In this document: piece by piece, positions 7,114-49,631 of the stretch
Numbering within the stretch: position 1 is the first letter of the stretch
Layout of the letters: every line of letters begins with the position of its first letter
Source: Macrostomum lignano
Lineage: Eukaryota
DNA: 64,000 nucleotides
Reading direction: 5' to 3'
NCBI GenBank assembly: GCA_002269645.1
Contig: NIVC01001157.1
Coordinates: forward strand, 248,001 to 312,000
Position numbers and translations under genes: made by a program
The notes under the pieces: generated by a model
Told to the model about the DNA's origin: nothing
Seen by the model: only the letters and a program-made list of their open reading frames with translations
Databases searched by the model: none

Positions 7114-9509
7114 TCAAACTGCCAACGAGCCAAGGACAACAGGAAGCAAGAAATGTTGAAAAGTGTACAAGTGTACAAACTTACCACATCCCGATAGCGC
7201 AGCTCCACAGTCTCGGTGGCCTCGGCGTGCGGAACAAAAGCCTCGGTGCGGCCGCCAAACAGGGCTTCCTCCAGACGAATGGACTTGCGCTCCCTCGTCC
7301 TGATAGTCATGCTCCCACATGACACGTACATTGTAGGCAGTGGAGAGCAGGCGAGTGAAGCGCTCAGTCTCCTCATAAATTGCCCGCATTGGCTGGTTCT
7401 TGAGCGGGTGCAGCACATCGCCGTTGGGGAAGCACTTGGGACAGCCATGGTAGAAGCAGCCGTGAAATTGGAGCACCGTCCTGGTCTCCGGGTCGAAACC
7501 GTCCACCTTACGGCCCATGGCGAAAGCCTCGCCGCCAGAGTCGGCTGTCCGCAACCGGCCGCCAAACTCGGTTGCATTCAAGTGTGCCAGCCAGCACCGC
7601 GCCTTGTGCGACTGTACATCCGACCGGCGGGAAATCACCCCAAGAGTGTTGGGCTCCATAAACTTGGTGGTGAATACTGTCATTACCAGGCCCGCAATGG
7701 TGTTGGATTGTACAAATGCGTCCAGTCCGCAAATGTCCTTAATCAGGCGGCCGTACTTAAGACAGCCTTGCCGCAATATTAGCGTGTCCTGCAGGCAGTA
7801 GTCAAGTATTCCTTGTTAAAATTAAACACTTGGCCCTCCTGCTTTGCCAGCCAGTCAGCGATGGAGTCGTGCTGCTTATTCTTTTTCCCGCCATACATTT
7901 CAATCGAGCAGTAAGGCCCCACGTAGCCCCAGTTTTGCGGCTGATTAAACACGTGCGGGAAATCTCCTTTGGTCAGTTGTATGCCCAAACCAAGCGCCTT
8001 TGGGAATTGCGCCAAACCAATAGGGATAAAGTTGAGGCTGTCCTTGAACGTGATCTTGTCACTCTTCATGTACATCAGGCGGCTGTTTTGAAAAATGACT
8101 TGCGGCTTCTTCTTGGCCAGTCCATTGAGTACGGCGCCGAGCAGGAGGAATGCGTCGTACGCAGAGCCATTGTGTGCAATAGCAATAGCACCCTGCTTGA
8201 AGACACTAGTCAGCCAGCAGTAAAAGGCATCGATAGAGTGCGGCCCAACTGAAACAAACTCTCGCATCCCACAGGTACAGTCATTGTGGGAGACAGCTCG
8301 TAAAATCCAGCGCCAGATTGCGTCCCGCAATGCAATTGGCTGAGCTGTGCAACCCCCGACACGCGCTGCAGCGGAACCTGGGAAAGAGTTTGGGACACGC
8401 CTCGCAGGAGGTGGCAGCCGTAACCAAGTGTACCCGGTGCTGCTTGTCAGAGTCAACGTACGTCTCGAAATCGTAGTAAACGTACGGGGCGCTAGACTCT
8501 TTGGCTTTGGGCGGGGTGACAAAGCACTCGTAGGTGGCTGTTTCGTCGTACTGCTTGCAGACTGGATACTTGGAGTGACCGCACTGATGCTCGGGGGCCT
8601 GGCCCACTTTCAGTTCTTCTAGATAGCCACACGTGCCGCAAACGTGGACTGAATCACAGCGAGATCTACCCGCCCTATTCTTGCGCTTGTGATTCTCTTG
8701 ACACTGAGCATTATAGCAATTTAGCCCAATTTAATCATGGCATCTCACATGCGCGGTTATGCTTGCAGTTGGCACCCGGGGTCTTGCAGGTGCTGCAGGC
8801 GTCTGCGCACTTGTGCTTGGCGTTGCCGCAATCGTAGGCCATCTCGCACTTGGAGCAGTAGTGGTGGCTGCCGAAAAACGCTGGCAGCTTGGTGATCACA
8901 TTGAAGTGCTGCTCTACGAGGTGGAGGTGCAGAATCTCGGTGCCAGGCAGGTTGAAGATGCACCTGTTGGCCTCCTCAGCCCGGTACACACGTACACCAA
9001 AATCATGGCCTGGATGCAGCCGGTTCAGGGCACGGATCGCCTCGGGCAGTACATCCACCCGAAGGCCTGCGAGACGGTTTGAAGAGTGTGTGGGGGGTAA
9101 AATATTTATTTTAGTATTCCCTGATACTATGTAGGATTCTTATCGGGAAAATAGTAGAAAATGGTTCTTTTAGTATTCCATGATACTATGTCAAGTGGTT
9201 CCTTTAGTAATCCATGAAAATACTATAAACTACACTATTTTAGTTGAAATTCTTTTCGGGAACATACTAGAAACTTACCGTGTAGAGGCCAGCCTCGATT
9301 TGCAGCTTAGTCGCCAGATTAATGTGCTTAAAAACAACATTCGGCCGTCATGCGGGATGCACGCACCGGGGAGTGTGGGCCGCTTTGAGCATTTTGTCGC
9401 TCTCAAATTTCGCCGCCATGAAATCCTCGCCGGCCAAGTCTTGCTTGAAAACTTTTAGCGTGTGGGCAAACACCTCCCACAAATCTTCAGTGTTACTAAT
9501 GTGCACCAC
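7114..9509 (-). pseudogene. Protein-primed DNA polymerase B (pPolB) of an outer GC-rich Polinton; frameshifted and truncated in the palm
   Basis: Cys/His-rich N-terminal region, ExoI YYDFET, ExoII IAHNGSAYD, FKDSLNFIP, inserted PD-(D/E)xK/VSR-like nuclease KVDGF...QFHGCFYHGCPKCF, then LFGGRTE and YRDVVSLY (motif A). Ends near 7150. Confidence 0.93.
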
Positions 9510-9864
9510 AGTAGTAAGTAAAAGTACGCTTCCAGACCCAGAGGCACCTATTAAACAGCACATTTGAAGGGCTAGAGGGGGGACACGGGGGGAATCAAAA
9601 AAACACATGTAAACACTAAACAGCACAATTAAACACAATTAAACACCCCCAATACCCCCAATAACCCCATTTAATCAAAAACACTATTAACACACCCAAT
9701 CAAATCCACACATCAGAAATCAAACCCCCATGTCCCCCCTCTAGCCCTTCAAATCCATTGTTTCAATAGGATCTGATCTAGAAGCGTACTTTTACATACT
9801 ACTACATCCAAACACACACAAACACTCTCTAACCCGTCGCCAGCGCCGCAGGCGCAAAGGGTCT
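9510..9864 (+). repeat. Left TIR (~355 bp) of the inner Polinton
   Basis: Reverse complement of 20650-21005 with only a few mismatches or indels. Confidence 0.95.
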
Positions 9865-9879
9865 TTTTCTGTTACGAAA

Positions 9880-10194
9880 ATGAACCGAGTTTACACCTTT
9901 TCAGTTAGTGATACTTTTAAGACTGTTGCTAAAAATTCAGAGATTATAAAACAGCATATTTTGAATGGAATAATTGATGAAGTATATTTAAAATATGATG
10001 ACAAAAAAGATCTAAAACTTTATCCGTTAGATTTGGATGGTTTGTATGATCTAGAACGAGCGGGTGAGTTAATATTTCAACTTGGAGATTATTTAAATTC
10101 AGACGATTGGGAGGTTCGTTCAACTGATTCCGAGTCAACAAATAGTTCATATGAAACTAGTGACTCGGAGAATGAAATTGAAATTTTTATGTAA
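9880..10194 (+). CDS. Hypothetical acidic protein just inside the left TIR
   Basis: 104-aa ORF with AAAATG start context and a Ser/Glu/Asp-rich tail. No motif recognised. Confidence 0.45.
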   Translation: MNRVYTFSVSDTFKTVAKNSEIIKQHILNGIIDEVYLKYDDKKDLKLYPLDLDGLYDLERAGELIFQLGDYLNSDDWEVRSTDSESTNSSYETSDSENEIEIFM

Positions 10195-10409
10195 AAATGA
10201 ATTATTACTCAGTAACAGAAACTACATTTATTGTGAAAAATATATTTAAAAAAATGAAGGTAAATCGTATCAATGATACGCATGCTTTTCATGATTATTC
10301 CTATATCGGAAACGTGCCGGCCAATAATTATATTAGTAATAATATTGTTTTTCTTTGTTATAAAAAATTTACTACCCTGTTGCCTTAAGTAATTGTACGA
10401 ACTTAGTTC

Positions 10410-11300
10410 GCAGATATTATCTGGTTCTCATAAAAGGAACCCAATATTTCTTCACCATCTTTATCAGCAATGATATAGGTTGTAGGATTTGTATTTAAAA
10501 CTTTACTGATGGTAAATTTCTCACTTATCTTCCAATATCCTTTTCTTCCCTTTTCAAACTTATCTTTCCATTTATAAATATAAACAGAATTACCAACTTT
10601 AAAACCTTTAGTTTTCTTTTTTTCAAACTCTCCAAAAGTGACTTTAACATTTTCAGGAGTGTTATAGCTTGTTGAGGAGTCATTTTTATAGCTGAATGAT
10701 ATGAATTATTATAATCTTTCACAACGTCTGGTAATATTTTTACCCACTTTTGGTTACCATTAATACTAAACTGAAACCACAATTTCTTACCTAAAGTTCG
10801 ATTAACTCTTTCAATCAGTGCGTTTTTGCTTTCTCCATAAATAGAATAAATTTTATTAATATACTCACCATTCGCGTCTTTTTTCCTTTCTTTTCCTTTT
10901 TCAAAATGATACAATTTATACATATGATGATTGTAAAATTCTTTTCCTTCATCAACACACAACCTATCACTTTTTTCTCTAAGATTTTTAAAAGCAGCGG
11001 CAATCTCCTCTCCTTTTTTGGATTTCAAAGGAACAGCCCACGCATTTCGAGTAAGATATATCCAGATATAACTATCCAGTATGGTTAAGATATATTTATA
11101 TCCTCTTTCGTTCGGCATTGACATTAAATCAGCATATCAAATTTCATTCTTTTTGAAGTTAATGATTTTTCTATAAAATTTAGGCTTTCGGTATTCTTTG
11201 TGAAGAACCTTTGCCTCATCAGAACTTAACCCACCACCACTTAATAACAAACACTCTACACAATTATTTTCATGTTGATTGTAATTAATTCCCAAACCAA
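10410..11300 (-). pseudogene. Polinton rve (DDE) integrase
   Basis: EAKVLHKEYRKP...EI*YADL, GYKYILTILD, AWAVPLKSKKG, CVDEGKEF, ALIERVNRTL, YNNSYHSAIKMTP. Frameshifted C-terminal VGDLVRI...KFEKG...TYIIADKDGEEILGSFY. Confidence 0.92.
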
Positions 11301-11915
11301 ATTTCACTTTAGATTGCAAGATCTTTTTAACCATCCACCGAGTTAATCTCTGGCTTACCGATAATCCCTGTAAATTATCTAATCCTTCAATCATTTTTCT
11401 ATCGGCTTCATGCTTTAATCTTATGCTTCCTCAGGAGAATTCTTGTCAGCATCTCTGTATGCTAAGTCATGATAATATGCTAACCAATCAATACCATTGA
11501 TGGGAATTGAATCAGCTTTTGGAGTATCATCAGGATTTAATCTCAAATCCAGCCTAGTCCCGGGTAGTTTGCCCTCAATCTTTCGAAAGAGGCTGGAGCA
11601 CACCTTAAGCGGTTAAATTACCACCCACCTCCGTCTGCTCTCTGAACCTTCTCCTTATACTTTTATACTTAGGAGCTTGACTGCGCATTGTCACCATGTC
11701 TTCAAGCTTGTTACCTTTGGGAAGAGGAGTTACCTCTGTTCCTTCAAAAGATTTCTCAATTGAAGTGGTACTTGAAGCTGTATGACGGGTTTCACGCAAT
11801 TTGAAGGTGTCGCCACAAATAGTGACTAGCAGTAGCTTTGCTTCTACCACTCAGGCCACGGGTTAACCTGTGAAGTTCATTGATGGTAGGTGTAGTTCCC
11901 CAGTATATTTTCCAG
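11280..11915 (-). pseudogene. Parvovirus-VP1u-like phospholipase A2 domain protein, split by a 301-bp insert and apparently in frame with the integrase
   Basis: ELHLPSMNFTG | PGTRLDLRLNPDDTP...PINGIDWLAYYHDLAY...EADRKMIEGLDNL...KVKFGLG. Contains the catalytic HDxxY motif. Confidence 0.8.
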
Positions 11916-11971
11916 TAGTAAAGATTGGTGGTAAGCCTGTTAGTCCTTTTTGAACATCTAAAAATCCACCT

Positions 11972-12605
11972 TCAAACAAAAGTTGGCTCATTTTTAATAG
12001 CCTTAAAAATACAAGTTAACACTAATTGTTTTGCAAATTCTTTAATTGTTGGTTTTTTAACAAATTTAGTTTTATTATCCATAGCAGCTAGGTATCTTTT
12101 ATTTGTCCAATGTTCCGACTTTTTAATTTGTTCCTCATTGCGATAATCAAAAGATGAAGCAGGAATAAAATGATCCACATGCAAAACACCAATATAATCT
12201 TTTGGCAAATAATAATGTTTGGTGAAATTTAACCAATCTTTAAAGAATTCAATTGGGCAACCAAGATAATAAATAGTATGGTTGTCTTTTTGACCATTAG
12301 TTGATTTTAATAGTTTATTTATTCTAGTTCGCGTGTTTACAATAAGTTTGAAATTTTCATCTTCACTATATCTTGTTTTTCTATATTGATTAACTTTTTC
12401 TTTATTGTTTTGTGCATATATTAACTTTCTCTATAATTTTTTCTTTATTTTCAGCATAATATCGAGGATAGCAAATATTCTTTTTGATAAAATTTCCCAC
12501 ATTCTTTGCAATTACCTTCATATCGATTCTGGGTTATTCTATATCTAAACTCAAGCAAAAAATTCTCTTCTTTACATCTACTACAGATCTTTTTAGTTTC
12601 CATTT
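11972..12605 (-). pseudogene. Zn-finger plus HNH endonuclease
   Basis: N-terminal KICSRCKEE...CKEC. C-terminal LHVDHFIP...HWTN...L..MDN..K (HNH signature). Frameshifted. Confidence 0.75.
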
Positions 12606-12627
12606 TATGAAAAAATAAATTTAACAT

Positions 12628-13305
12628 CTAAATAATTCCTGTATGTCCAGCAGCTTTGGCAGCGGCTAAAACAAGTTTTCGTGGAGTTTTAAATCCTTCG
12701 CCAACAGCTCGTTTGTTATTTATTGATTGATCAATCCTTTTATACAAACTAGTGTTTTTAACACCCCCTACTCCTAACTCATCATAAAAAAATTTAGCAC
12801 TTACTAATTCATCCACAGTATATAAATCAGGATTAAACTTTACTCTAGGGTTCATAATAATATTATATGCTTCACCCAATTCTCTATATAGCTCATTCCG
12901 ATTTTTATCAACCCCACCAATTCGATAATTATCATTATCTAAATCCGTCACGCTAATACTTTGTGGAGAAGCTCTCTGATATTGTTCCCTACCACCCAGT
13001 TCTGCAGCCCTAATCTCTGCAACTCTCAATTGTGCTTGATCAACATCATAAGCGGGCGGTTCATCCTCAATTACATCTTCCTCTTTTGGCTCCGTATTCT
13101 TAGCAATTTTTTCAAGAAGCTCTTTATCAGTTTTTGTTAATTCACTAATTTTCCCCGTAATAGGATTAACAAAAGGAGCAGCAAATCTTTCACCAGCTAA
13201 CTGTATTCCTAACTTTCTTTTTTGTAAATCCCTAACAAAATCAGAATATCTTTGTTTCTCTTTATAAATCGCTAATTCACCATCAACATCCATAAATTGA
13301 CTCAT
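12628..13305 (-). CDS. Hypothetical Polinton protein (225 aa)
   Basis: Long open AT-rich ORF divergent from the capsid gene. No motif recognised. Confidence 0.55.
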   Translation of the reverse strand: MSQFMDVDGELAIYKEKQRYSDFVRDLQKRKLGIQLAGERFAAPFVNPITGKISELTKTDKELLEKIAKNTEPKEEDVIEDEPPAYDVDQAQLRVAEIRAAELGGREQYQRASPQSISVTDLDNDNYRIGGVDKNRNELYRELGEAYNIIMNPRVKFNPDLYTVDELVSAKFFYDELGVGGVKNTSLYKRIDQSINNKRAVGEGFKTPRKLVLAAAKAAGHTGII

Positions 13306-13339
13306 TTTTTAACATAAAAAACTTTTTTAACTTAAAAAA

Positions 13340-13900
13340 ATGGCTGAAACAAAAAACAGATGGAGTGATAAGTATTATTTCAAAAAACCACGGCAATATA
13401 TCAATGAGGTCAGGGCAAAAGATTTAAATTATACCCTACCAACAAGCGATAATTCAAACAATTTTACTACCGGAACGGTAACTTTTGATGTTGGTGCAAC
13501 TAATACGATACTAATGCAACTAAACGCATTTTCCGTGTTAGATGCTTATATACACGAAATGACGGAACAGCTCTTGCGGCCGGCGATATAGCCGATCGTT
13601 CTGGTATTGTTATCGAGAAAGATTGGTTTTATAAATGTTTTTCCCAAGCGCAACTAAGAATTAACGGAGCTGAGGTTGAGACATCAACAAACCCCGCAGA
13701 GATTAATGGAGTTCTTAAACATTTAAATTATACTTATTTATCAAAACAGGTTGGTGATAATGTTGGATGGATGCCCGATAAGGGAGATGGTGGAGCAATA
13801 AATTTTCCTACCATAGCACCAGCAGCCGGCGCAGATACCGCTGCTCTTATTAATTACCTTAATACAAACATAGTTCCCGTTGTTGTTGAGCTGTTGAGCT
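13340..13900 (+). pseudogene. Major capsid protein (double jelly-roll), N-terminal part
   Basis: MAETKNRWSDKYYF...VTFDV...FSQAQLRINGAEVETSTNP...LKHLNY resembles Polinton MCP N-termini. Frameshifted and truncated where it meets the pPolB relic. Confidence 0.65.
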
Positions 13901-15142
13901 AATTTTTTGTACATTCAGCCGTATCTTGTTGTTTAGGACATTTGAGGGGTATGTTTGATGCTTCAAAATCAGCATATATTACAATTGGTTTTTTAATTGC
14001 CATAAAATGTTGTTGGAACTTTAATATTTGTTCTTTTTCATTGGGCATTACAACATTAGTAAATAATTAGGTTTTTAAGAGCACTTTCATTCTTTTTAAA
14101 TGTGAAACAATTTCTACATATTGGCATTCTATTTCCATTTGTTCTTAATAAGGAACAAATATCTTTTATGTATATATAATGTGTATTGTTTTCATGCTGT
14201 ATGTACAATAAATCGATTTGGTCTGGTGCTGTTATATCAGTTGCTGGCTTAATAAGAAAACATCTTTTTTTTATATCATTCTTTATCGTGTGCTTTAACC
14301 CAATCGTTTGGCTGTTCAATTGAAAATACATTAATATTTAACCCATTCATTTTTTCAATCTTATATATATCATCTATGGATACTGGGTAGGATATGTCTT
14401 TCATTATTATTTCATCCACATAATCTCTAATAATATATTTTATTTACATGCCATTTTACTTGTTTGTGATATTTTTGAATTAGTAAACACCATAATAAAC
14501 ACTTATCATCTTCATTGTTGGGATTTATGATCATGGGAGATGTAAATCCTGGATCCATATGTGATCGTCCTCGAAGAACTTCAATAGGAACAATCTTTAC
14601 TGTGGCTGAGTTATAAGAAACAAAAATGAAGCCTGATCCGTTTTCTGTCATCTTATCAATCCATTTATCAAACTCTGCTTCGATATTATCAAATTGTTTG
14701 GTATATGTTCCCATTGATAAAAGTGACTTATATGATTCTTGTGAAAAGGTATTTATTACTTCAATTTCTGAAATTGCATTTATCATATTTGGTTTTTTAA
14801 ATTCTGTTTCAATTTCAATTTTATACCTAACTGGCTGCCGTTTGTTATTTTGTCTCATAGTATATTCGTCTAATACGGTCTTTAATTTTTCTTTCATTTG
14901 TTTAAAATATTCTTTATAATCTGTATTCATATCAATATTAATATTTATTATTTCAGCACCATTCGCTGGTGGTGATGCTGTTTGTTCGATAATATCTAAT
15001 TGTGTTTGTAAATTGATTTCATTTTCTGCTCTAATTCTAGCTTCTATTTCCGCCCTATCGGCAATTCGTTGTGCTTTGATTTGAGCTATTAATTGAGCTC
15101 TAAGTTCTGGGTTGTCGATTTGAGCTAAAATATTTCCATTTT
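13900..15142 (-). pseudogene. N-terminal region of a second, AT-rich pPolB
   Basis: ENGSGFIF, LRGRS, IINPNNEDDKCLLWCLL, IDLLYI...HYIYIKD...ICRNCF, and ExoI VIYADFEAS immediately before truncation. Confidence 0.85.
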
Positions 15143-15194
15143 ATAGAATAAAATTTATACAATGTTTGAATTATTGGTTTTTTAATTTTATGTT

Positions 15195-16123
15195 TTGGGC
15201 ATCCTGACCCTCCCCACAGGAGCTTATTCGAGTTCCGCTTTTGGTAACAGTAAGCCACTACCCATAACGTTTGCATTTAAGAAGATTCCTGAACCTGCTT
15301 TTGGTCGCATTTCGAGATATAATCCGCTTCCGTCATGTTTTTTAATTATGTTAAAATCTTTTCCTAATTTATTAAAAATTTTCTGAACCGCAGGTCTAAA
15401 ATTAGCTCCGATATTGTCGAAAAATCCTTTAGCTTCTTCGCCGGTTTTTCCAAGGTTTGACCGAATTCATGAAATTTGTCTGCGACAACTCCGCTTCCGT
15501 GGGTCATTCCTTGCAAGATTAAACCCTCACCGTGAGTTGTTCCTTTTAAAATTAAACCTTTTCCGGCTGCTAACCTAGCTTCTGCATTTTTTTTGTTCTG
15601 GTGTTGCTGAACTACTATTAATTGTGTCTATAAGTTTTTGTTTGAATTGTGCGTCCTGCGTTATTTGCTGTCTTTGAAATTCTGCATCTCGTTTAGCTTT
15701 TTCATCCGCAGCTTTTTTGTCATTTACTGCTTTTGCAACTCCAGCCGCTCCACCAGCGACTCCTTCAGCCGCGGCAATTCCTCCAAAAATTATTGGGAGC
15801 AAAGTTGCAAGTGGAAGTATGCCCCCTTGTTTTTCTTTTAATTTTGCTCACTGTTTTCGGTTATCATGAATCCTTTTGCCTGCTAAACCGGCTGCTCCTG
15901 CTGCCCCAAGTCCTAAAAGGATTGGTAGAAAGGGTAGTAATCCACCATCCCTTTTTATGTGAGTCTCCATTAAAAATTTTACATCAGAATCTGTTAGCCT
16001 ATAGGTTTTACGGTTGTGCTTAAATGAAATGGGTCTTCCTTCTTGTGCATATTTTGCAGCGAGTTTAAAAGTATCAATATCATAATCCAATTTTTTACCT
16101 AAACGATCTAATCTTTTTAACAT
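15195..16123 (-). pseudogene. Cluster of small core-protein-like (pX/pVII-like) genes
   Basis: GGLLPFLPILLGLGAAGAAGLAG; LPIIFGGIAAAEGVAGGAAGVAKAVNDKKAA; repeated GSGLYL/GSGIFL/GSGLLL. All are typical of Polinton core proteins. Confidence 0.65.
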
Positions 16124-16345
16124 TGAGTGACTATGTTTGTTATCATCTAAATTTAAGGTGTCTACTATTTCTCCTATAAAATAAAGACGATACTACTAAG
16201 CAACGGTAGATCCGTCGATTTTGGAGGTGGGGTGGGTGTCAACCCTCCTCGCCTCTCATTGGCTGGCGCCCCGATCACTAGGTGATAGATACCCGTATCG
16301 ATATCGGCGCTCGGCGCGCGCGCGCCGCAGGCGCGTGGCGCCAAG

Positions 16346-17746
16346 CGCCGCAGGCGCACCTACCGATATGTACCGATATGTATGCTCACCCTACCGACAT
16401 GTACCCCGATATGTACACCCTCCCGAGCCGCAGGCGCACCCTCCTGAGCCGCAGACGCCCATGCCGCAGGCGCCCCGAGTGTACACTCTCCCGAGCCAAA
16501 GGTACACTCTCCCCAGTACACTCTCCCCAGTACACTCTCCCGATATGTACACTCTCCACAGTACACTCTCCCGATATGTATGCATACACAGATATGTAGT
16601 CAACGATATTAGGCTAGTGAAAACTACTTATAGTAGGTGAAATTGAGTATATTTACATAAAAATGTAGATAAAACATATTGGTAGGTGAATAATGACGCA
16701 TATTACATATTAAAATGTACATATTGGAGCATATGAGCAGCAAAAACACACAATGTAGGTGCATATTTGACAGAAATAGACAAAGCAGGTACTGTAAGCA
16801 CTACATAGGTGGTAATACACACAGTATAAAGTAGGTTTACAAAGTGTACTTTCGATACATATCGGATTAATGTATAAAGCGGGTTTACAAGGCATGCATA
16901 TATCAGAAGGTGTAGTTGTATAATACAGGCGCGCATGTATAATCAGATTATAGGCAAACGCCCAGGTGCAATTTCAACAGACGCGTAAATAATGTCACAC
17001 CGACTAAAGAGTAAATATTGTCTAACCCGCAGGTGCATAAATATTAAACAAAAGCGGTTCGGGGAAATCCCAAAAGGGAGGTTTTAGCCGCCCGTTTTCG
17101 CCGCCCTAACCCTCTTATGGGTACAATTGCGTTGAAAATATTTCAAGTCATTAGGTTGTAAGACCCTCCATATTTTAGGTGGGTGGACTCGAGCCCGGGG
17201 CCAGCCCATTACAGTTTTTTGGGCCGGCCCCTCTGCCAATTTCCTCCCTAGGTGCGAGCTATCAGAATTGGTCTTTTAACCCCCGTGTATACACACATAG
17301 AGGCCCCCCAGCTAGCGTCCCATTCTAACCTACCCAGTGTACAGTGTTGGGTTCCCCAAACCGCGTACAAAGAGAAATACCTTATCAGTCAATCTCCATA
17401 CGCTCCCTCAGGGCTGTCTCGTACGCGGCCTCTTCCTCCACGCTCTCGAAGCAGTAGTCGGATGACTGGCAATGTGGAAATTATAACAGTCAATGTAGAT
17501 AGAATATAGGCAAGGTATATGATTAGATGAGTTGTGTATACAGTGTAATATCTTACCAAACCTAAATCCTCCTCCAGCCGCCACAGGCGTAGAGACGCTG
17601 TATAGCGCACCAACGAAAGGTGCTCCTCCCAGTTGGTAGACCGGATAGCTACTGCAGGCTCATCCCACGCAGTCGGGCGCGCTCCCGGACCGGCCAGGTA
17701 CGCCTCCGAGTCGGGGGCATACGAATTACGCCCTATTAGCCAATCC
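16346..17746. repeat. Left arm of 4-kb inverted duplication
   Basis: Reverse complement of 18972-20381; identical ORFs appear on opposite strands (16703-16936 vs 19805-20038). Confidence 0.97.
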
Positions 17747-18321
17747 TGGTGTAGCGTCTCCGCCTCCAGCACCTCCCGCAGATCAGCCCCTCGGGCCACC
17801 AAAGTATCAAGAACCCGATTAAAGGCTCTGACAAAGGTGGCTTGGGAGGGCAGGCCGCCAGGGTGGCGAGACCTCAACCAGTCAATGTCCCCGCGGAAAA
17901 ATGAGGCCACAATGCGAGGAAAGCGCTCACGAACCACGGCGATCTCCTCAGACATATCCTCGTCCTCATCGTCGAAGAGAAGGAGCGTAGAGGCTGATGA
18001 TATTGAGGCCCGGTGGGAGGTAGTTGAAGCAGAGGCGGCAGCGGCAGAGACGGGCGCAGTAGAGACAGAGGCGGCAGCAGCAGCAGGGGCGCCGTTCACA
18101 ACCCCGCCGATAGCCAGCAGCGGGAGGTCAAAAACTTCAGAGTCGGTGTCGCTATCATAGGACATGGCCCAAGCTAGATATTGATCAGCCTCCCAATTAT
18201 CGGTTCCGTTGTTTTCAGTGCCTAGGGGAACTATGTGTTCAGGGATATCACCCTCGAGGCTGGTTAACTCTTCAGTCGGGCGATTATTATCCCAGAGGTT
18301 GGATAGAGCTCGGCGGGCCAT
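17389..18321 (-). CDS. Hypothetical 310-aa protein with acidic and Ala/Ser-rich N-terminal half
   Basis: Open ORF downstream of CCAAT/TATA elements (18330-18430). Its start (MARRALSNLWDN) is conserved at 23053 (MSRRALFNLWDN). Confidence 0.7.
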   Translation of the reverse strand: MARRALSNLWDNNRPTEELTSLEGDIPEHIVPLGTENNGTDNWEADQYLAWAMSYDSDTDSEVFDLPLLAIGGVVNGAPAAAAASVSTAPVSAAAASASTTSHRASISSASTLLLFDDEDEDMSEEIAVVRERFPRIVASFFRGDIDWLRSRHPGGLPSQATFVRAFNRVLDTLVARGADLREVLEAETLHQDWLIGRNSYAPDSEAYLAGPGARPTAWDEPAVAIRSTNWEEHLSLVRYTASLRLWRLEEDLGLVRYYTVYTTHLIIYLAYILSTLTVIISTLPVIRLLLRERGGRGRVRDSPEGAYGD

Positions 18322-18432
18322 GTTGGAATCAACAGAGAGTAAAGTATTAGAGCTAGGATAGGTTCGACTCTCCAGAGAGGAAACACTAATTATATAGACG
18401 GATCGAGTGAGGCGGTGCGAACCAATAGGAAA

Positions 18433-18966
18433 CTAGCAGTCCCAACCCTCGTTATACAGATTTTCCCAGGGCGGAGATTGGTAGGGTTTGAGACCCACAA
18501 GCTGAAGAACATCCTCCTCAGTCCTGGCTACCGGAGGCGTGTCTGTCTTGACTCGCTTGGCTGGAGGGGGTGCCTCAGGTACCGGCTTGAAGAGCTTGTC
18601 CAAACGGGCGGCAAACATCCTGCGCCACAGTTCAGGCGTGAATTCGATCGTGTAGCGCCAATTAAACTTTGGGTCCTGATTGAGCCAATTGCGCAGCAAA
18701 CGGATCCTCCCTCGCGAAGCTTCAACTGCCTTGAAATTGCCCAACAGGACCCGCTTGTTCACGTGAAGGCGGGCAGCAGCCTCCAGGTCAGGGCGCGCAG
18801 CTTCGAGCTTCTTCCACTCTGGCTCGCTCAAGTAGATTGCAGGGAAGCCGTCCTTCCACACTCCGGCCTCGTTGGTGTAGAGACGCCGAATTTCAATCAA
18901 GTTGTGTTCAGTTTCAAATGTGGGCTTCCGCGCCACAAAGTTTTCGTATAGAGAGATAGAAGACAT
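18433..18966 (-). CDS. PC4-like ssDNA-binding protein (probably tandem domains), copy 1
   Basis: LIEIRRLYTNEAGVWKDGFPAIYLSEPEWKKL follows the PC4 pattern (IDIREYW...G..KPG..GISL...QW..L). A second degenerate unit ends IEFTPELWRRM. A conserved paralogue is at 22401-22946. Confidence 0.7.
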   Translation of the reverse strand: MSSISLYENFVARKPTFETEHNLIEIRRLYTNEAGVWKDGFPAIYLSEPEWKKLEAARPDLEAAARLHVNKRVLLGNFKAVEASRGRIRLLRNWLNQDPKFNWRYTIEFTPELWRRMFAARLDKLFKPVPEAPPPAKRVKTDTPPVARTEEDVLQLVGLKPYQSPPWENLYNEGWDC

Positions 18967-18971
18967 GATTT

Positions 18972-20381
18972 GGATTGGCTAATAGGGCGTAATTCGTATG
19001 CCCCCGACTCGGAGGCGTACCTGGCCGGTCCGGGAGCGCGCCCGACTGCGTGGGATGAGCCTGCAGTCTGCTATCCGGTCCGGATAGCTACTGCTATCCG
19101 GTCTACCAACTGGGAGGAGCACCTTTCGTTGGTGCGCTATACAGCGTCTCTACGCCTGTGGCGGCTGGAGGAGGATTTAGGTTTGGTTAGATATTACACT
19201 GTATACACAACTCATCTAATCATATACCTTGCCTATATTCTATCTACATTGACTGTTATAATTTCCACATTGCCAGTCATCCGACTACTGCTTCGAGAGC
19301 GTGGAGGAAGAGGCCGCGTACGAGACAGCCCTGAGGGAGCGTATGGAGATTGACTGATAAGGTATTTCTCTTTGTACGCGGTTTGGGGAACCCAACACTG
19401 TACACTGGGTAGGTTAGAATGGGACGCTAGCTGGGGGCCTCTATGTGTGTATACACGGGGGTTAAAAGACCAATTCTGATAGCTCGCACCTAGGGAGGAA
19501 ATTGGCAGAGGGGCCGGCCCAAAAAACTGTAATGGGCTGGCCCCGGGCTCGAGTCCACCCACCTAAAATATGGAGGGTCTTACAACCTAATGACTTGAAA
19601 TATTTTCAACGCAATTGTACCCATAAGAGGGTTAGGGCGGCGAAAACGGGCGGCTAAAACCTCCCTTTTGGGATTTCCCCGAACCGCTTTTGTTTAATAT
19701 TTATGCACCTGCGGGTTAGACAATATTTACTCTTTAGTCGGTGTGACATTATTTACGCGTCTGTTGAAATTGCACCTGGGCGTTTGCCTATAATCTGATT
19801 ATACATGCGCGCCTGTATTATACAACTACACCTTCTGATATATGCATGCCTTGTAAACCCGCTTTATACATTAATCCGATATGTATCGAAAGTACACTTT
19901 GTAAACCTACTTTATACTGTGTGTATTACCACCTATGTAGTGCTTACAGTACCTGCTTTGTCTATTTCTGTCAAATATGCACCTACATTGTGTGTTTTTG
20001 CTGCTCATATGCTCCAATATGTACATTTTAATATGTAATATGCGTCATTATTCACCTACCAATATGTTTTATCTACATTTTTATGTAAATATACTCAATT
20101 TCACCTACTATAAGTAGTTTTCACTAGCCTAATATCGTTGACTACATATCTGTGTATGCATACATATCGGGAGAGTGTACTGTGGAGAGTGTACATATCG
20201 GGAGAGTGTACTGGGGAGAGTGTACCTTTGGCTCGGGAGAGTGTACACTCAGGGCGCCTGCGGCATGGGCGTCTGCGGCTCAGGAGGGTGCGCCTGCGGC
20301 TCGGGAGGGTGTACATATCGGGGTACATGTCGGTAGGGTGAGCATACATATCGGTACATATCGGTAGGTGCGCCTGCGGCG
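18972..20381. repeat. Right arm of 4-kb inverted duplication (carries the 3' half of the 310-aa ORF)
   Basis: See left arm. The arms differ only by rare SNPs and small indels. Confidence 0.97.
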
Positions 20382-20528
20382 TATGTGATGTGAGCTGGGT
20401 TAATTTTTTTTTCGCTTCGTGATAAAATTGAGTTCTTCTTATATGCATTTATATAACATTTAGCTGCGTGGGTGGGGTGATGAATGTCCACATTCCATTT
20501 AGCTGCGTGGGTGGGGTGATGAATGCCC

Positions 20529-20595
20529 ACATTCCATTAAGGCCAGATTTTTGAAAACGAAAACGAAAACGAAAAATCTGGCCTTAATGGAATGT
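20529..20595. other. Perfect 24-bp stem-loop with a (GAAAAC)n loop
   Basis: ACATTCCATTAAGGCCAGATTTTT-GAAAACGAAAACGAAAACG-AAAAATCTGGCCTTAATGGAATGT. Confidence 0.9.
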
Positions 20596-20649
20596 TGAGT
20601 GCGTGGGTGAGCTGGCTAAAAATAGCTTCTATTCTTTCTCTACCATTCT

Positions 20650-21005
20650 AGACCCTTTGCGCCTGCGGCGCTGGCGACGGTTAGAGAGTGTTAGTGTGTG
20701 TTTGGATGTAGTAGTATGTAAAAGTACGCTTCTAGATCAGATCCTATTGAAACAATGGATTTGAAGGGCTAGAGGGGGGACATGGGGGTTTGATTTCTGA
20801 TGTGAGGATTTGATTGGGTGTGTTAATAGTGTTTTTGATTAAATGGGGTTATTGGGGGTATTGGGGGTGTTTAATTGTGTTTAATTGTGCTGTTTAGTGT
20901 TTACATGTGTTTTTTTTATTCCCCCCCGTGTCCCCCTCTCTAGCCCTTCAAATGTGCTGTTTAATAGGTGCCTCTGGGTCTGGAAGCGTACTTTTACATA
21001 CTACT
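20650..21005 (-). repeat. Right TIR of the inner Polinton
   Basis: Reverse complement of 9510-9864; ends ACTACT followed by the TSD CACCAC. Confidence 0.95.
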
Positions 21006-22170
21006 CACCACATATTCAACGCCCTTTGCCCTAAACTTAGGCAGGTCGCGTTGATTATACAGCCGGGCCGTAAAACCTGCAGAGAATGAATGGGGGTGTG
21101 AGTCAGCCTGGGTCTGTCTGGGGAATGGGGGCTAGATAACTCACCCGGTCCGGTAACAGATTCCGGCTGTGTTGGCGGGACAAACGCGTCTGAAAAAAAC
21201 ACAAGGAGATAAAAACCAGAAGAATCTGTCATTTTCCTGGCCCCAGCGTGTTCGGACAAAGAGGCACCCCTCCCAACTCTATCCCAGCAAGTTCCTATCA
21301 GCCCTGGCACCCCTCTGTCGCAGCACCCTAACAGCAGCAATTCACCAACTCTATCCTGCAACTATTTCTTATCAGAGTCTTTGTTTACTCTTCTGCACCC
21401 CTCCAATTCTCACAGACCCTGCAGCTGTTGCTGCTAACCCTGCTGAAACGTGTCAAGCCCTCCCCAGCAACTGTGTCTGTTTTTGCTACAGACCCCGCTA
21501 ATTTCTTATCAGTACCCCAACCGCAGCACACCCCCCGCCTGTCTGGACACGCGCAGCACCCTATCTGCAGCCCCAGTCTTCGTTTACGCTGTCCCTGCCA
21601 GCCCGTGTAGCTATCACAGCACCGCTAAATCTACCTAGCACGTGTCTGCAATTTTTTAACCCTAACGATTATCTGTTACAGACCCTGCCTATTTCTTATC
21701 AGCAACGTACCCTCCTGCCTAGCAACTCCAGTCTAGACCCCTGCAGCTTTCGCAGCAGCCCCAGTCTTTGTTTACTCTGCTGCACCCCTCCAATTCCCTG
21801 CAGCAGTTAACCCTAGCAACTCTCTGTCACCGCACCCCAACGATTATCTGTTACAGACCCTGCCAATTTCTTATCAGCACCCCAGCTGCAGCCTGTCTGG
21901 GCAGCTCCGTACACGCACCCTATCTGCAGCCCCAGTCTTTGTTTACACGCGCAGCTCACCGTGCTGAAACTTGTCTAGACAGCGCTAAACCCTTGCAGCT
22001 GTCGCAGCAGCTCACCCCACTGCTAATTCTTATCGGTACCCTGCCGCAGCACCCTAGCAACTCTAGTCTAGACTGATAAACAACTGGCCAGAAATTAATT
22101 AAAACCTACCATAAAGACGCTGCCTCTTATCAGCCAGGAAAGCAGTTGGTGCTGCGCTGCGTTTAGCCAT
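21006..22170 (-). pseudogene. 5' exons of the outer pPolB gene (exon 1 22170-22110, exon 2 21189-21145, exon 3 from 21076)
   Basis: GTAGGT...TTTCAG and GTGAGT...CTGAC...CTGCAG introns, both phase 1, splice to MAKRSAAPTAFLADKRQRLY-D-AFVPPTQPESVTGP-G-FTARLYNQRDLPKFRAKGVEYVV. Confidence 0.75.
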
Positions 22171-43174: not shown

Positions 43175-43634
43175 TCAATTTCACATATCTTTAGTGATTT
43201 TTAAATGAGTGAGGGCATGAAGCGAGGGAACGCTTCTTTTTTGAAAGTATAAAAATTCTGAAAAAATCTGTGTTTCGCATGCCCTCACCCTCAACACCCT
43301 CAATATATATATATAAATATACTAAATATAATAAATATAAATATATATGTCGTATATATATAGCTCGTATGGATACAATATCTGTGAAAAAAATCTGTGT
43401 TTCGCATTCCCTCACCCTCAACACCCTGTATTGTATGTATATTGTATGTATATATTGTATGTATTGTATGTATATTGTATGTATATATATATATGTATAT
43501 ATTGTGAGGGTGTTGAGGGTGAGAGCATGCAAAACACAGATTTTTTCAGAATTTTTATACTTTCAAAAAAAGAAGCGTTCCCTCGCTTTCATGCCCTCAC
43601 TCATTTAAAAATCACTAAAGATATGTGAAATTGA
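43175..43634. repeat. Inverted duplication (~130-bp arms) around a TA-rich core
   Basis: TCAATTTCACATATCTTTAGTG... is inverted as ...CACTAAAGATATGTGAAATTGA. An additional partial direct copy sits at 43381-43425. Confidence 0.9.
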
Positions 43635-43864
43635 GTTGCAGTACAATACAGTTGCAATATATATTTTTATTGTATTTATATTGTATTATATTTATTGTAT
43701 TTATATTATATTAGTATATTTGTATTGTTGATTATATTTATATATTTATATATTATTTATATATTTATATTCACATGTTGTGTATATTCACAACAATATA
43801 TACAGTATATATTCACACACACAATATTTATCCCCCCACCCACTTGCAACTGCGACTTCCTGGT

Positions 43865-43960
43865 AGTAGTAGCATGATGTAAGGGGATGAGTCATCTGCG
43901 AATGGAGCGAACTGCGCCCGAGCGATCAATGTGGCTCCTCCCCTTACATCATGTACTACT
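43865..43960. other. Terminal hairpin AGTAGT...ACTACT (96 nt)
   Basis: AGTAGTAGCATGATGTAAGGGGA pairs with TCCCCTTACATCATGTACTACT (one bulge). Confidence 0.85.
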
Positions 43961-44950: not shown

Positions 44951-45700
44951 TTAAATTGCCTTCAAAGTTCTATTCCCGCAGCTCGGCTTTAAGCAAAGGT
45001 GGCAGGCCCTGGTAACCTTGCTCGGCGGCAATTCTGTGGGCCACTGATCCGGCCGCCTGCCGGTTGAACAGTCCGCCCGATAGCTTTTCAGCGGCCAGGC
45101 TGGTGGCTCATTCAAAGAGGCTGACCCGATACAGCCGGTCCTCAGCCCGGAGCTGCGCCGACAAGTCCGGTGGCAACCCCTCGAAGATATTCCCGCGCAC
45201 GCCGGCCAATAGATGATGTCGGCGATTTCAATCGCCTGCCGCTCTCTTATCCACGCGGCTAAATCCTCCATCGAGGAGGCGCGACTAATCGGCCACGACG
45301 GCGGCGCCTTTGCCCTAGCCTCTGGGCAAGGTCCTGGCGGCCTGACGTTACGAGCATGTAACGGGGTGACCGTAGCCACCTGGGCAGCAGCGCGGCGCAG
45401 CTTAATAAAGAGCTGCTTGCCCGCCGGGCCGCAAAATCGCCCTCCTCTTCTACCACGTTTTCGCGAGTTTGGTGGGTGCCCTACGGGGTCGCTCCATCCT
45501 TTGAACTGCGCGCCTGTTTTGCCGCGCTGGCTCCTATCAGGCGCAAGCCCCCGGCTTGCTGCACCACTGCATCGCCGCTATCAGATGGCACCAGCCGGTT
45601 AAGGCGTAGCGGCGAGGCAACAGTCTCCATCGGTGAGTCTGGAGCTCCATCGATAGTAAGTCTGTCCTCTCGATCAGCGGAGCTGGTACTGGTGCTATTC
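44951..45700 (-). pseudogene. Unknown protein, paralogue of 30363-30920 (frameshifted)
   Basis: NVRPPGPCPE...SRASSMEDLAAWIRERQAI; the alternative frame gives FEGLPPD...LRAED...YRVSLFE. Confidence 0.55.
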
Positions 45701-45802
45701 CACGCCTTTTTACATGACTCAGAATCGAACTTTTCATAGTTTACTTTTCAGTGAATACTTTGTACATTTCATCACCACTGTCTATGTCGCGGAGTATGAG
45801 TG

Positions 45803-46600
45803 CTACCTTGTACCAAGAATCATAGTCTTGGTCTTGGTTTTTGTGTGCATTATATTTAACAACTTTGAAACTCCTTCACAAGTGGGTGGTGGAACGTCGC
45901 TTTTTAGTGCCTTTTTATCGGATTCTTGGTTTTCCGTTTTATCCTGTGGCTTAATTAATCTATTTATCTCATCAAGAATTACATCTGGCATGTCTATTAA
46001 GCCTTCGGGCTTTATATGTTTGTATTCCTTAATTTTACCATTCACATAATAGAAACCTGGTGGAGCAAATACTAAAGCCGGAATATCAAAACCCACTCTT
46101 TGTTGAATTTTTTTTTATCTATCTACCTTGTTAAAGTAAAAGTGGTGACCCTTGTTTGTCTGAACAATCCAATCACAATGAGTCATACACAGTTCATTCA
46201 ACTCAGGGCATAGGTCAGCATCATCAATATCGATTACGGTTATATTTGAATTTCGAGTATCTATCCAAATCATGTTGTCTACCTCTGGTCGAAATGGTGG
46301 GGAGGTTGAATTCCTATCTGCTTTGGTTGGCATTCCTGACGGTATTTTTTTCTTTGTTTTACTATTCCATGTTATACTGCAACTTCCGAATCTAAAATTA
46401 AGTTCTCCATAGAGATTAATTAGTTTATCGTACAATTTTGTTTGTTTTAAATTTCTCAACCTTGGTGGTGGGGCATCATGGTTTTGAAGGGGATCCTGTA
46501 CGATCACAGGAGAGAAACTTAAATCGTTTTGATTTTTTCCTTCCATTTTATTAAAAATAAATTTAACAATATAATTCATCAGTTGCAATGTACTTCTCAA
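45803..46600 (-). pseudogene. Primase-polymerase (Prim-Pol, AEP superfamily) domain gene
   Basis: NITVIDIDD (DxD), VQTNKGHHFYF (sxH motif), then after a poly-A frameshift GFDIPALVFAPPG and MPDVIL. Confidence 0.78.
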
Positions 46601-47109
46601 GGGTTATGGGGAGTTTGAAAATGTTCAATTTCAGCATGACGAAAAATTCATCATTCCCTTTGTGCTGTCTCGAAGTCGATGCCCATTTATCAACATGTGC
46701 AAGATATACTCTAATGAATACAAATATGGGGGCATTTAAAATCGGTGTGTTTTAATATTTCTGCTTTATATTCATCGTAAGCTTATCAATTTCTTCAATT
46801 CGTCGAGCCTTTCGAGTGGTGTTTTTATTTGAGAAAATGATTTAATATAATCATAGTACTTTTGTGATAGAGCATTTCGTACATTTGGGCTATTAGCTTC
46901 CATTTTTTCTAGGAAAATTTAAGTCACAATCTGATTCAAGTGGAAGTGAACCCGTTACCAACAACAGACCTCATGCTGAGAATATGTAAATGCAGACTTA
47001 TCGAATCGGCTGTAGTGTGTTTACAAATTTCTGAATATAGTGGACTTACCCCCAGATTGTTACATTTAGTAGTTGACTGAGCCTTCTCTTCTTCCTTTGG
47101 TGTTGCTTT

Positions 47110-49168: not shown

Positions 49169-49323
49169 ATAATATTTATATTTTTATACTTATCACACAC
49201 ACCTTGCAACAATGACCTCCTGGTAGTAGTAGTGTTATATAAGGGGCTGAGTCATCCAGCGAGCTGGCGCGCAATGCGCCCGAGCAATAAGTGTGGCGCA
49301 GCCCCTTTTATCATACTACTACT
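48790..49323. repeat. Subterminal region plus 99-nt terminal hairpin (49225-49323) of the same Polinton-like family
   Basis: Homologous to 43000-43280 and 43840-43960. AGTAGTAGTGTTATATAAGGGGCTG pairs with CAGCCCCTTTTATCATACTACTACT. Confidence 0.8.
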
Positions 49324-49631
49324 GATATTATCCCTGACACAATCATAAAAAGGGGGGTCGAATTTGCTTCGAAAAATTCGAAAATAATCCTCCTAAATCC
49401 ATCCATATTATCCCTGACAGAATCAAAGCATAACAGGTGTCCTAAATAATCCACTGACATCCGCCCATAGCATCTTCGAAACAATCGAAAAATAATCTGC
49501 ATTTATCTCCCCACATTCAATTCGCAACGCGAAACCAGATCCCTAAGACTTTAGCGAGGGCGCTCATCCTCCGAAAAAAATCTTTTTTCTGAATCTTGAT
49601 TGTTTTTTATATGCTTACGAAGTATCGTGAG

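Follow-up and report, generated by a model that had tools for sequence, protein, structure and literature searches.

Both ends of a Polinton in a 64,000-nt stretch of the Macrostomum lignano genome (hereafter the window) fold tip to tip into a hairpin, each terminal inverted repeat (TIR) carrying a second, inverted copy of the terminal motif. Its conservation, the covariation of its arms and its recurrence in a second family make it very likely that this hairpin is a functional end structure rather than the trace of a single duplication. We propose, with a probability of roughly 0.45, that the hairpin at each end acts as a local double-stranded origin and as a repair template for terminal-protein-primed replication; in this proposal we infer the folding in vivo, the origin role, and the trimming and restoration of the ends.

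The terminal hairpins

The left end (9510-9803) had been described by inspection as a sequence that folds on itself, and DNA folding bore this out, giving -58.1 kcal/mol (z -13.67; none of 200 shuffled sequences was equally stable) and an interrupted stem of ~80 bp that begins with the tip AGTAGT at 9510 and closes on ACTACT at 9798-9803. The outer arm (9510-9591, plus strand) runs from the integrated tip, its first 27 bp being almost perfectly complementary to the inner arm (9725-9803, plus strand), which ends in the closing ACTACT. Between them lies the loop (9592-9724, plus strand), which had been estimated at ~130 nt and nearly G-free, and which is 133 nt long with the composition A68 C40 T21 G4; its length and sequence differ among subfamilies, while its G-poorness on this strand of the left TIR is constant. 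An AC dinucleotide follows (9804-9805, plus strand), so that the inner arm extends 2 nt past the register of the integrated tip, and the remaining TIR (9806-9864, plus strand) contains a conserved GC box at 9834-9864 with GCCGCAGGCGC.

The right end (20710-21005) forms the same kind of fold, at -58.6 kcal/mol, within the right TIR (20650-21005, minus strand), its AC extension lying at 20709-20708. The TIRs are ~355 nt long and 98% identical, leaving ~60 nt of TIR beyond the hairpin, and the element is flanked on both sides by the 6-bp target site duplication (TSD) CACCAC (9504-9509 and 21006-21011, plus strand). Loop and arms are present in contigs from four independent read sets, and the hairpin is therefore not an assembly artefact; contig X1 record 2 matches 9534-9875 with 0 differences. 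We also observed that the minus strand of the loop, which is the strand carrying the 3' end, is G/T-rich with several G runs, the polarity of telomeric G strands.

The same design had been noted in a sequence-distinct family at 43865 and 49225. Both units do fold (43865-43960 and 49225-49323, at -25.0 and -22.3 kcal/mol when read from the tip), but the two positions are inner arms; the tips lie at 43960 and 49323, with the element bodies to the left. These right-end hairpins of family 2 (minus strand) are 96 nt and 99 nt long and span 43863-43960 and 49223-49323 with their 2-nt extensions, the flank of the latter resembling the TIR repeat of family 3. Tips in family 2 carry 2 or 3 AGT repeats (L393; window 43954-43960) with a constant inner-arm run, which is consistent with slippage at initiation or integration.

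Coding content and relationships of the families

By its TIRs, AGTAGT...ACTACT motif, TSD, rve integrase, polymerase, ATPase and capsid the element is a Polinton. The copy at 9510-21005 belongs to family 1 and is broken, having an internal deletion and housing a nested insertion. It retains an rve integrase gene of broken frame (10406-11394, minus strand) that is 88-90% identical to the family protein (Pfam rve, E 4.8e-8, and E 4.5e-10 in a second scan of family ORFs), and an ORF (11975-12430, minus strand) that by eye looks like the endonuclease VII/HNH-like ORF which is free-standing in this family (L042:2961-3578; PHROG match, E 1.8e-9). These are followed by the 5' part of a putative major capsid gene cut by the internal deletion (13340-13893, plus strand), and by the broken, truncated N-terminal part (residues 3-420) of a family B DNA polymerase for which terminal-protein and OTU domains are predicted (13905-15134, minus strand). 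The nested element (16192-20381) has an ACTAC-type end and 1.4-kb inverted repeats, and is no part of the hairpin. Related family-1 copies code for the rve integrase, an A32-type ATPase (Pox_A32, E 6.3e-7 in one copy; deleted from the window copy), and a polymerase of 1320 aa that contains an inserted endonuclease VII domain (E 5.1e-7); homologs of this polymerase carry the name DNA-directed DNA polymerase. The TSDs match in 17 of 20 family-1 pairs.

From the terminal-protein and OTU domains, protein priming is predicted to be retained in family 1. A model of polymerase residues 60-420 (pLDDT 76) gave fold matches to adintovirus/MELD PolB (E 5.5e-19 and 2.2e-12); the model's matches to little-finger folds of the Y family (Z 7.9) and to OTU folds (Z 6.7) both fall below 8, and a search of the PDB with the polymerase sequence gave no match. 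The predicted TP-vOTU layout, in which one Cys is near-invariant and one His invariant, is the one given for Polinton pPolBs in the available part of a preprint (10.1101/2024.03.18.585575).

Family 2 shares 25% identity with family 1 in the capsid protein, where it has a DJR-like domain (E 1.9e-13), and 57% in the integrase. Its TSDs match in 4 of 7 pairs (two right tips were not located and one pair is a mismatch), and the three pairs of a separate comparison have no exact match. Besides PolB it encodes Prim-Pol/PriCT-2/D5 primase-helicase pieces, while family 1 gave no primase match; at window 45651-46922 and in L083 and L085, Prim-Pol, PriCT-2 and D5-N pieces stand with the protein-primed polymerase as two replication modules. 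The integrases of families 1 and 2 fall into a single clade (support 100/100), far from family 3, in a tree of 28 rows with midpoint root. A 157-aa ORF, tested as a candidate for an adenovirus-like maturation protease, is conserved in all three families and has no Pfam match. Both hairpin families have a restriction-enzyme-like ORF (Eco47II-like, weak Pfam matches) beside the integrase (L032:7605-8000, L084:5731-6363), and L084 has a partial third family-2 hairpin arm internal to the element (7497-7575).

Distribution of the hairpin

Collecting ends genome-wide, we took the first 30 nt of each, reverse-complemented them, and scored how well they match locally, at best, in the 570 nt that follow. 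This tip-pairing score was at least 35 in 29/29 family-1 ends (30 loci, L007 left out as its tip is masked) and in 30/30 family-2 ends, though many loci are near-identical duplicates and the scored ends are thus not independent events; among random starts, 12 of 2000 reached 30 or more. The hairpins of the two families differ from each other in length and sequence. None of 17 family-3 ends has a terminal hairpin (scores 11-17; 20 loci, with L329, L330 and L340 left out), and it is likewise absent from seven ACTAC-type ends of four elements (scores 11-15). The hairpin is therefore a trait of one Polinton clade within this genome. Within that clade the inner tip is altered or missing in L387/L388 and L012, and in the element represented by L036/L037, which has an intact TSD, the inner tip motif is mutated at both ends and the stem is otherwise nearly perfect. 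Family-3 TIRs (L323-L342; window 49324-49420) start with AGTAGAAG and have 82-bp tandem repeats in place of the hairpin.

Outside this genome the scan took in 95 integrase loci on viral and metagenome contigs, most of which have no visible end. A hairpin bounded by the (AC)3A//T(GT)3 motif, an end motif reported in the accessible text of PMC8097293, lies at a contig end (L298:1930-2044), and a covarying homolog of it is internal (L312:911-1025). A third hairpin follows directly behind an unpaired 6-nt ACTACT tip (L302:15330-15485), and another is internal (L236:4657-4840). All four of these metagenomic-contig hairpins are long, covary and are bounded by Polinton end motifs. Two of them sit between integrase and polymerase genes, where they could represent circular-form junctions or origins internal to the element. 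A motif scan of viral contigs covering at least 122 stretches gave no recognisable Polinton-like end among the matches listed, and no relative turned up when viral contigs were scanned with single proteins. The start of L415, GTAGTAGT, was given no weight, as by eye it reads as coding and it has no hairpin (score 22).

Covariation of the arms

Compensatory substitutions are present in the stems of both hairpin families. Among 21 family-1 ends, 65 pairs are 91.5% paired and 21 pairs have both partners changed; for the outer 27 pairs the figures are 97.7% and 10. Every one of the five whole-structure measures beats 500/500 shuffles and all slid controls. In family 2, where 20 ends are 95.6% paired and both partners have changed in 5 pairs, one measure among the five was no better than shuffles. 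These shuffle tests are inflated by the relatedness of the ends. Within a family-1 end the outer and inner arms mismatch at 0.71 of 27 sites, versus 4.02 between its outer arm and those of other copies. All four base combinations occur at position 10, the outer stems of two further family-1 haplotypes are perfectly matched, and invariant blocks are present in both arms. With stem and covariation both kept in families 1 and 2, the structure very probably does not go back to a mere one-time duplication.

The mismatches that do occur recur in many copies and are common to both TIRs of one element (C110, C326, C441, C1530, C1867). Since they are inherited and shared by the TIRs, the arms are not copied in every cycle, and the covariation seen alongside them would be explained by occasional arm conversion plus selection. 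By type, the family-1 mismatches show no strand preference (15 G.T versus 23 A.C contexts, p 0.26), and wobble pairs are not enriched.

We considered whether the hairpin is a functionless relic of ancient fold-back repair, its symmetry arising only from recurrent gene conversion during strand-displacement replication. The tolerance and inheritance of mismatches would fit, as would the absence of the hairpin from family 3, the source of most first-look candidates (837), and the L036/L037 subfamily with its almost perfect 80-bp stem looks as if freshly converted. However, the hairpin persists at the exact tip in two families despite sequence turnover, the loop stays G-poor while its sequence changes, the AC register is conserved, and other ends of Polinton type have hairpins at or close to them (L298, L302), all of which makes a relic quite unlikely.

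It was not unreasonable to consider instead that the arms are inverted duplex binding sites, or a cruciform, for the integrase or the endonuclease VII-like polymerase domain, and are used in excision. Family 1 has both this domain and the free-standing endonuclease VII-like ORF, the mismatch types show no preference for a strand, and the invariant blocks lie in both arms. On the other hand, variable positions covary rather than stay fixed, a loop of 50-150 nt is unfavourable for cruciform extrusion, and such nuclease insertions are widespread and interpreted as intein or homing relics. The link to endonuclease VII is further weakened because the polymerase region that contains it aligns also in hairpin-less family 3, and we regard a role of this kind as improbable.

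The extra AC dinucleotide

In both hairpin families the repeat of the inner arm goes on for 2 nt past the integrated tip before the sequence diverges. Pattern matching recovered 127 family-1 inner arms, which are followed by AC in 124 cases, AT in 2 and GC in 1; in family 2 the AC extension is present in 27/30 BLAST-selected ends, 0 pattern-matched inner arms are followed by a non-A base, and with a slightly wider pattern 58 are followed by AC. Two subfamilies with perfect outer stems read AT instead of AC. The longer inner copy suggests that free ends are 2 nt longer than integrated ends and are restored by fold-back, although the AC could also originate in repeat slippage of (ACT)n.

The same survey bears on the idea that the hairpin unit (295 nt or 99 nt) is a self-contained MITE or solo element, which its terminal motifs at both ends, as in a miniature element, had brought up. 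A solo unit should be followed by random host bases after the inner arm, and what is seen there is AC or TIR: the three of 127 family-1 arms without AC all run into TIR. No stand-alone short copy with its own TSD was found among these arms or among the family-2 arms, and the idea is scarcely credible.

Loop orientation and the mode of replication

Hairpin ends had also raised the possibility of a parvovirus-like flip-flop telomere. We found 0 flipped loops in 57 distinct family-1 and 48 family-2 ends; two seemingly flipped rows proved to be windows overlapping the G-rich arm, and four G-rich rows in the mismatch survey were normal ends read from inside. No HUH/Rep nickase match was found by Pfam and PHROG among the scanned family ORFs, several of which carry no assignment. 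Given that the predicted terminal-protein and OTU domains are kept, rolling-hairpin replication is unlikely, and the hairpin is likely a start and repair site for protein-primed copying and not a flipping telomere.

A related possibility is snap-back self-priming, in which, after single-strand excision, the 3' hairpin would prime the whole second strand and be resolved without loop flipping. Folds predict a paired 3' end in the terminal hairpin, and this end would face a template running into the element body. The same model is proposed for Halocafeteria virophages and PLVs in the part of a preprint accessible to us (10.64898/2026.07.28.741278), and the Prim-Pol/PriCT-2/D5 pieces of family 2 are the kind of gene that it ties to palindromic ends. 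Against this stand the fixed loops of all 57 and 48 ends, the arm mismatches inherited by many copies and common to both TIRs, the predicted retention of the terminal-protein and OTU domains, and the L036/L037 element, whose TSD is intact despite an inner tip mutated at both ends. We therefore judge snap-back priming unlikely.

Fold-back duplications near the ends, which had been taken to point the same way, are not a general feature: the inversion at 43175-43634 occurs in 3/80 loci, all holding the same end, one other inverted repeat was found among the 80 loci scanned (L024), and the pair 16346-17746/18972-20381 resembles the TIRs of the nested ACTAC-type element. Of the hairpin-ended replication mode suggested in the preliminary description, what stands is a conserved, covarying structure with a counterpart in a second family; the MITE, the flip-flop telomere and the general fold-back duplications fall away. 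In L043/L045 (C87) the same end genes are present at both ends with flanks inverted instead of direct, an arrangement that suggests copy-back or inverted duplication, or an assembly effect.

A proposal for replication and repair of the ends

In the protein-primed scheme that we prefer, an end that becomes single-stranded, through strand displacement or in an intermediate of single-strand excision, would form a duplex origin locally by folding, rebuilt at each end independently. In the strand that carries the 3' end, the terminal ACTACT would base-pair with the internal AGTAGT, and could then be lengthened by the AC templated right past that AGTAGT. Retroviral-type integrases trim a dinucleotide from the ends, and the AC extension would restore the one presumably trimmed on insertion by the retrovirus-like integrase. 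The arms would not be recopied every cycle and would be kept in step by selection and occasional arm-to-arm conversion, the two TIRs being homogenised with each other. A stronger form of the proposal, which we hold to be doubtful, makes the ends self-repairing telomeres: the free genome would carry 2 extra nt per end, the integrase would trim them, and after excision the two 3' ends would fold on their inner arms, regain the lost nucleotides by copying and present the origin to the terminal protein.

This explanation is favoured by the conservation of the hairpin in two families with 25% capsid identity, by the covariation of its arms, by the predicted retention of protein priming, by the conserved AC register, and by the precedent of fold-back repair at Streptomyces telomeres. 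It is weakened by the 0/17 family-3 and 0/7 ACTAC-type ends with a hairpin, which make the structure dispensable for Polintons generally, by the inner tips of L036/L037, L387/L388 and L012 and the AT of two subfamilies, by polymerase-model Z-scores below 8, and by the fact that wobble pairs are enriched on neither strand, so that folding as a single strand is an assumption of the scheme. Moreover, gene conversion alone can yield covariation, and the AC may be (ACT)n slippage.

The proposal bears on how Polintons exit the chromosome and regenerate usable ends, and it predicts free ends that are 2 nt longer and protein-linked, with loops that are never flipped. If it is true, an animal virus would have an end system that combines a terminal protein with fold-back, and this would indicate how a DNA element with a retroviral integrase renews its ends without reverse transcription.

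Comparison with known systems

The standard Polinton model rests on end-to-end pairing of the TIRs, and to our knowledge it has never been put to experimental test. The adenovirus ITR forms a panhandle origin, with a trinucleotide repeat tip, TIR homogenisation and protein priming; the Macrostomum ends share these last three features and differ in that a duplex origin would form locally at each end besides end-to-end pairing. In AAV and other parvoviruses, as here, both ends have a terminal hairpin and, inward of it, more TIR sequence, but the present elements have no flip-flop loops, inherit their arm mismatches, gave no Rep/HUH match among the scanned ORFs, and have a predicted terminal protein domain.

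Polintons/Mavericks are described as having (AGT)2//(ACT)2 ends and a 6-bp TSD (available text of PMC8097293 and PMC10748475). The present elements agree with published Polintons, as far as the accessible sources go, in TIRs, end motif, 6-bp TSD, rve integrase, A32-type ATPase, DJR capsid, TP-vOTU polymerase and nuclease insertion; unlike those described, each TIR here is a tip-to-tip fold-back with an inner copy 2 nt longer. The words "hairpin" and "palindrom" are absent from the main texts of PMC8097293 and PMC10748475, and no Polinton terminal hairpin appears in the accessible portions of these two papers (with the supplement of the former) or of PMC8502044, PMC11296320, PMC6431247, PMC12220804, PMC12945077, 10.1101/2022.07.28.501842 and 10.64898/2026.10.13.758929. 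Full-text literature searches, with the founding 2006 paper, Repbase and preprint supplements outside their scope, returned no tip-to-tip hairpins of animal Polintons and no paper pairing "Polinton" with "cruciform". Against these sources the hairpin is a new form of Polinton end, and a new mode of replication is only proposed.

A close precedent is the July 2026 bioRxiv preprint cited above for snap-back priming (10.64898/2026.07.28.741278), which, in its accessible part, reports TIR palindromes next to the TSDs of Halocafeteria seosinensis virophages and PLVs of subtype 4. The palindromes there measure 52 nt, were screened with a gap limit of 10, and are tied preferentially to non-pPolB elements, with hairpin priming proposed. 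While the Macrostomum elements likewise have an rve integrase and a palindrome in the TIR adjoining the TSD, they are pPolB-coding Polintons of an animal and not of a protist, their loops are 50-150 nt, and they show covariation, fixed loop orientation and the extra AC. The expectation of non-pPolB replication genes failed, as family 1 has pPolB with no primase match and family 2 has pPolB with primase-helicase pieces. Hence the mode of replication can no longer be called unrecognised as such, since hairpin priming with terminal palindromes has already been proposed there, while none is described for animal Polintons in the sources available. Palindromic ends are not confined to non-pPolB elements, and screens with a small gap limit would overlook hairpins with long loops; the present families, which are animal Polintons that code for pPolB, offer a tangible cis element whose arms covary, and families lacking the hairpin are at hand in this genome as natural controls. 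Some casposon TIRs also hold palindromes (PMC4046053, available part).

Protein-capped Streptomyces telomeres resemble the proposed scheme in combining terminal protein priming with fold-back of a single-stranded 3' end, and truncated 3' ends are repaired there by fold-back extension (accessible text of PMC5449611). They differ in being bacterial, with tightly packed short palindromes, a dedicated Tap primase and no integrase. The repair used the short palindrome I hairpin and not a longer-range duplex (PMC5449611), which weakens our explanation, and repair of the Streptomyces type would here be deduced from the conserved extra AC alone.

Neighbouring ACTAC-type elements

The 9510 element adjoins a polymerase gene of another family (weak DNA_pol_B_2 match), which belongs to shorter ACTAC...GTAGT elements with 6-bp TSDs (window 7117-9139; L086-L105). 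The family-1 TIR and the ACTAC-type TIRs have GCCGCAGGCGC in common (window 9834-9864, 16192-16360 and ~20360-20381; L095:5200-5320), which suggests a putative shared binding site or a recombination point. The right repeat of the nested element ends at GCCGCAGGCGC, where family-1 sequence resumes.
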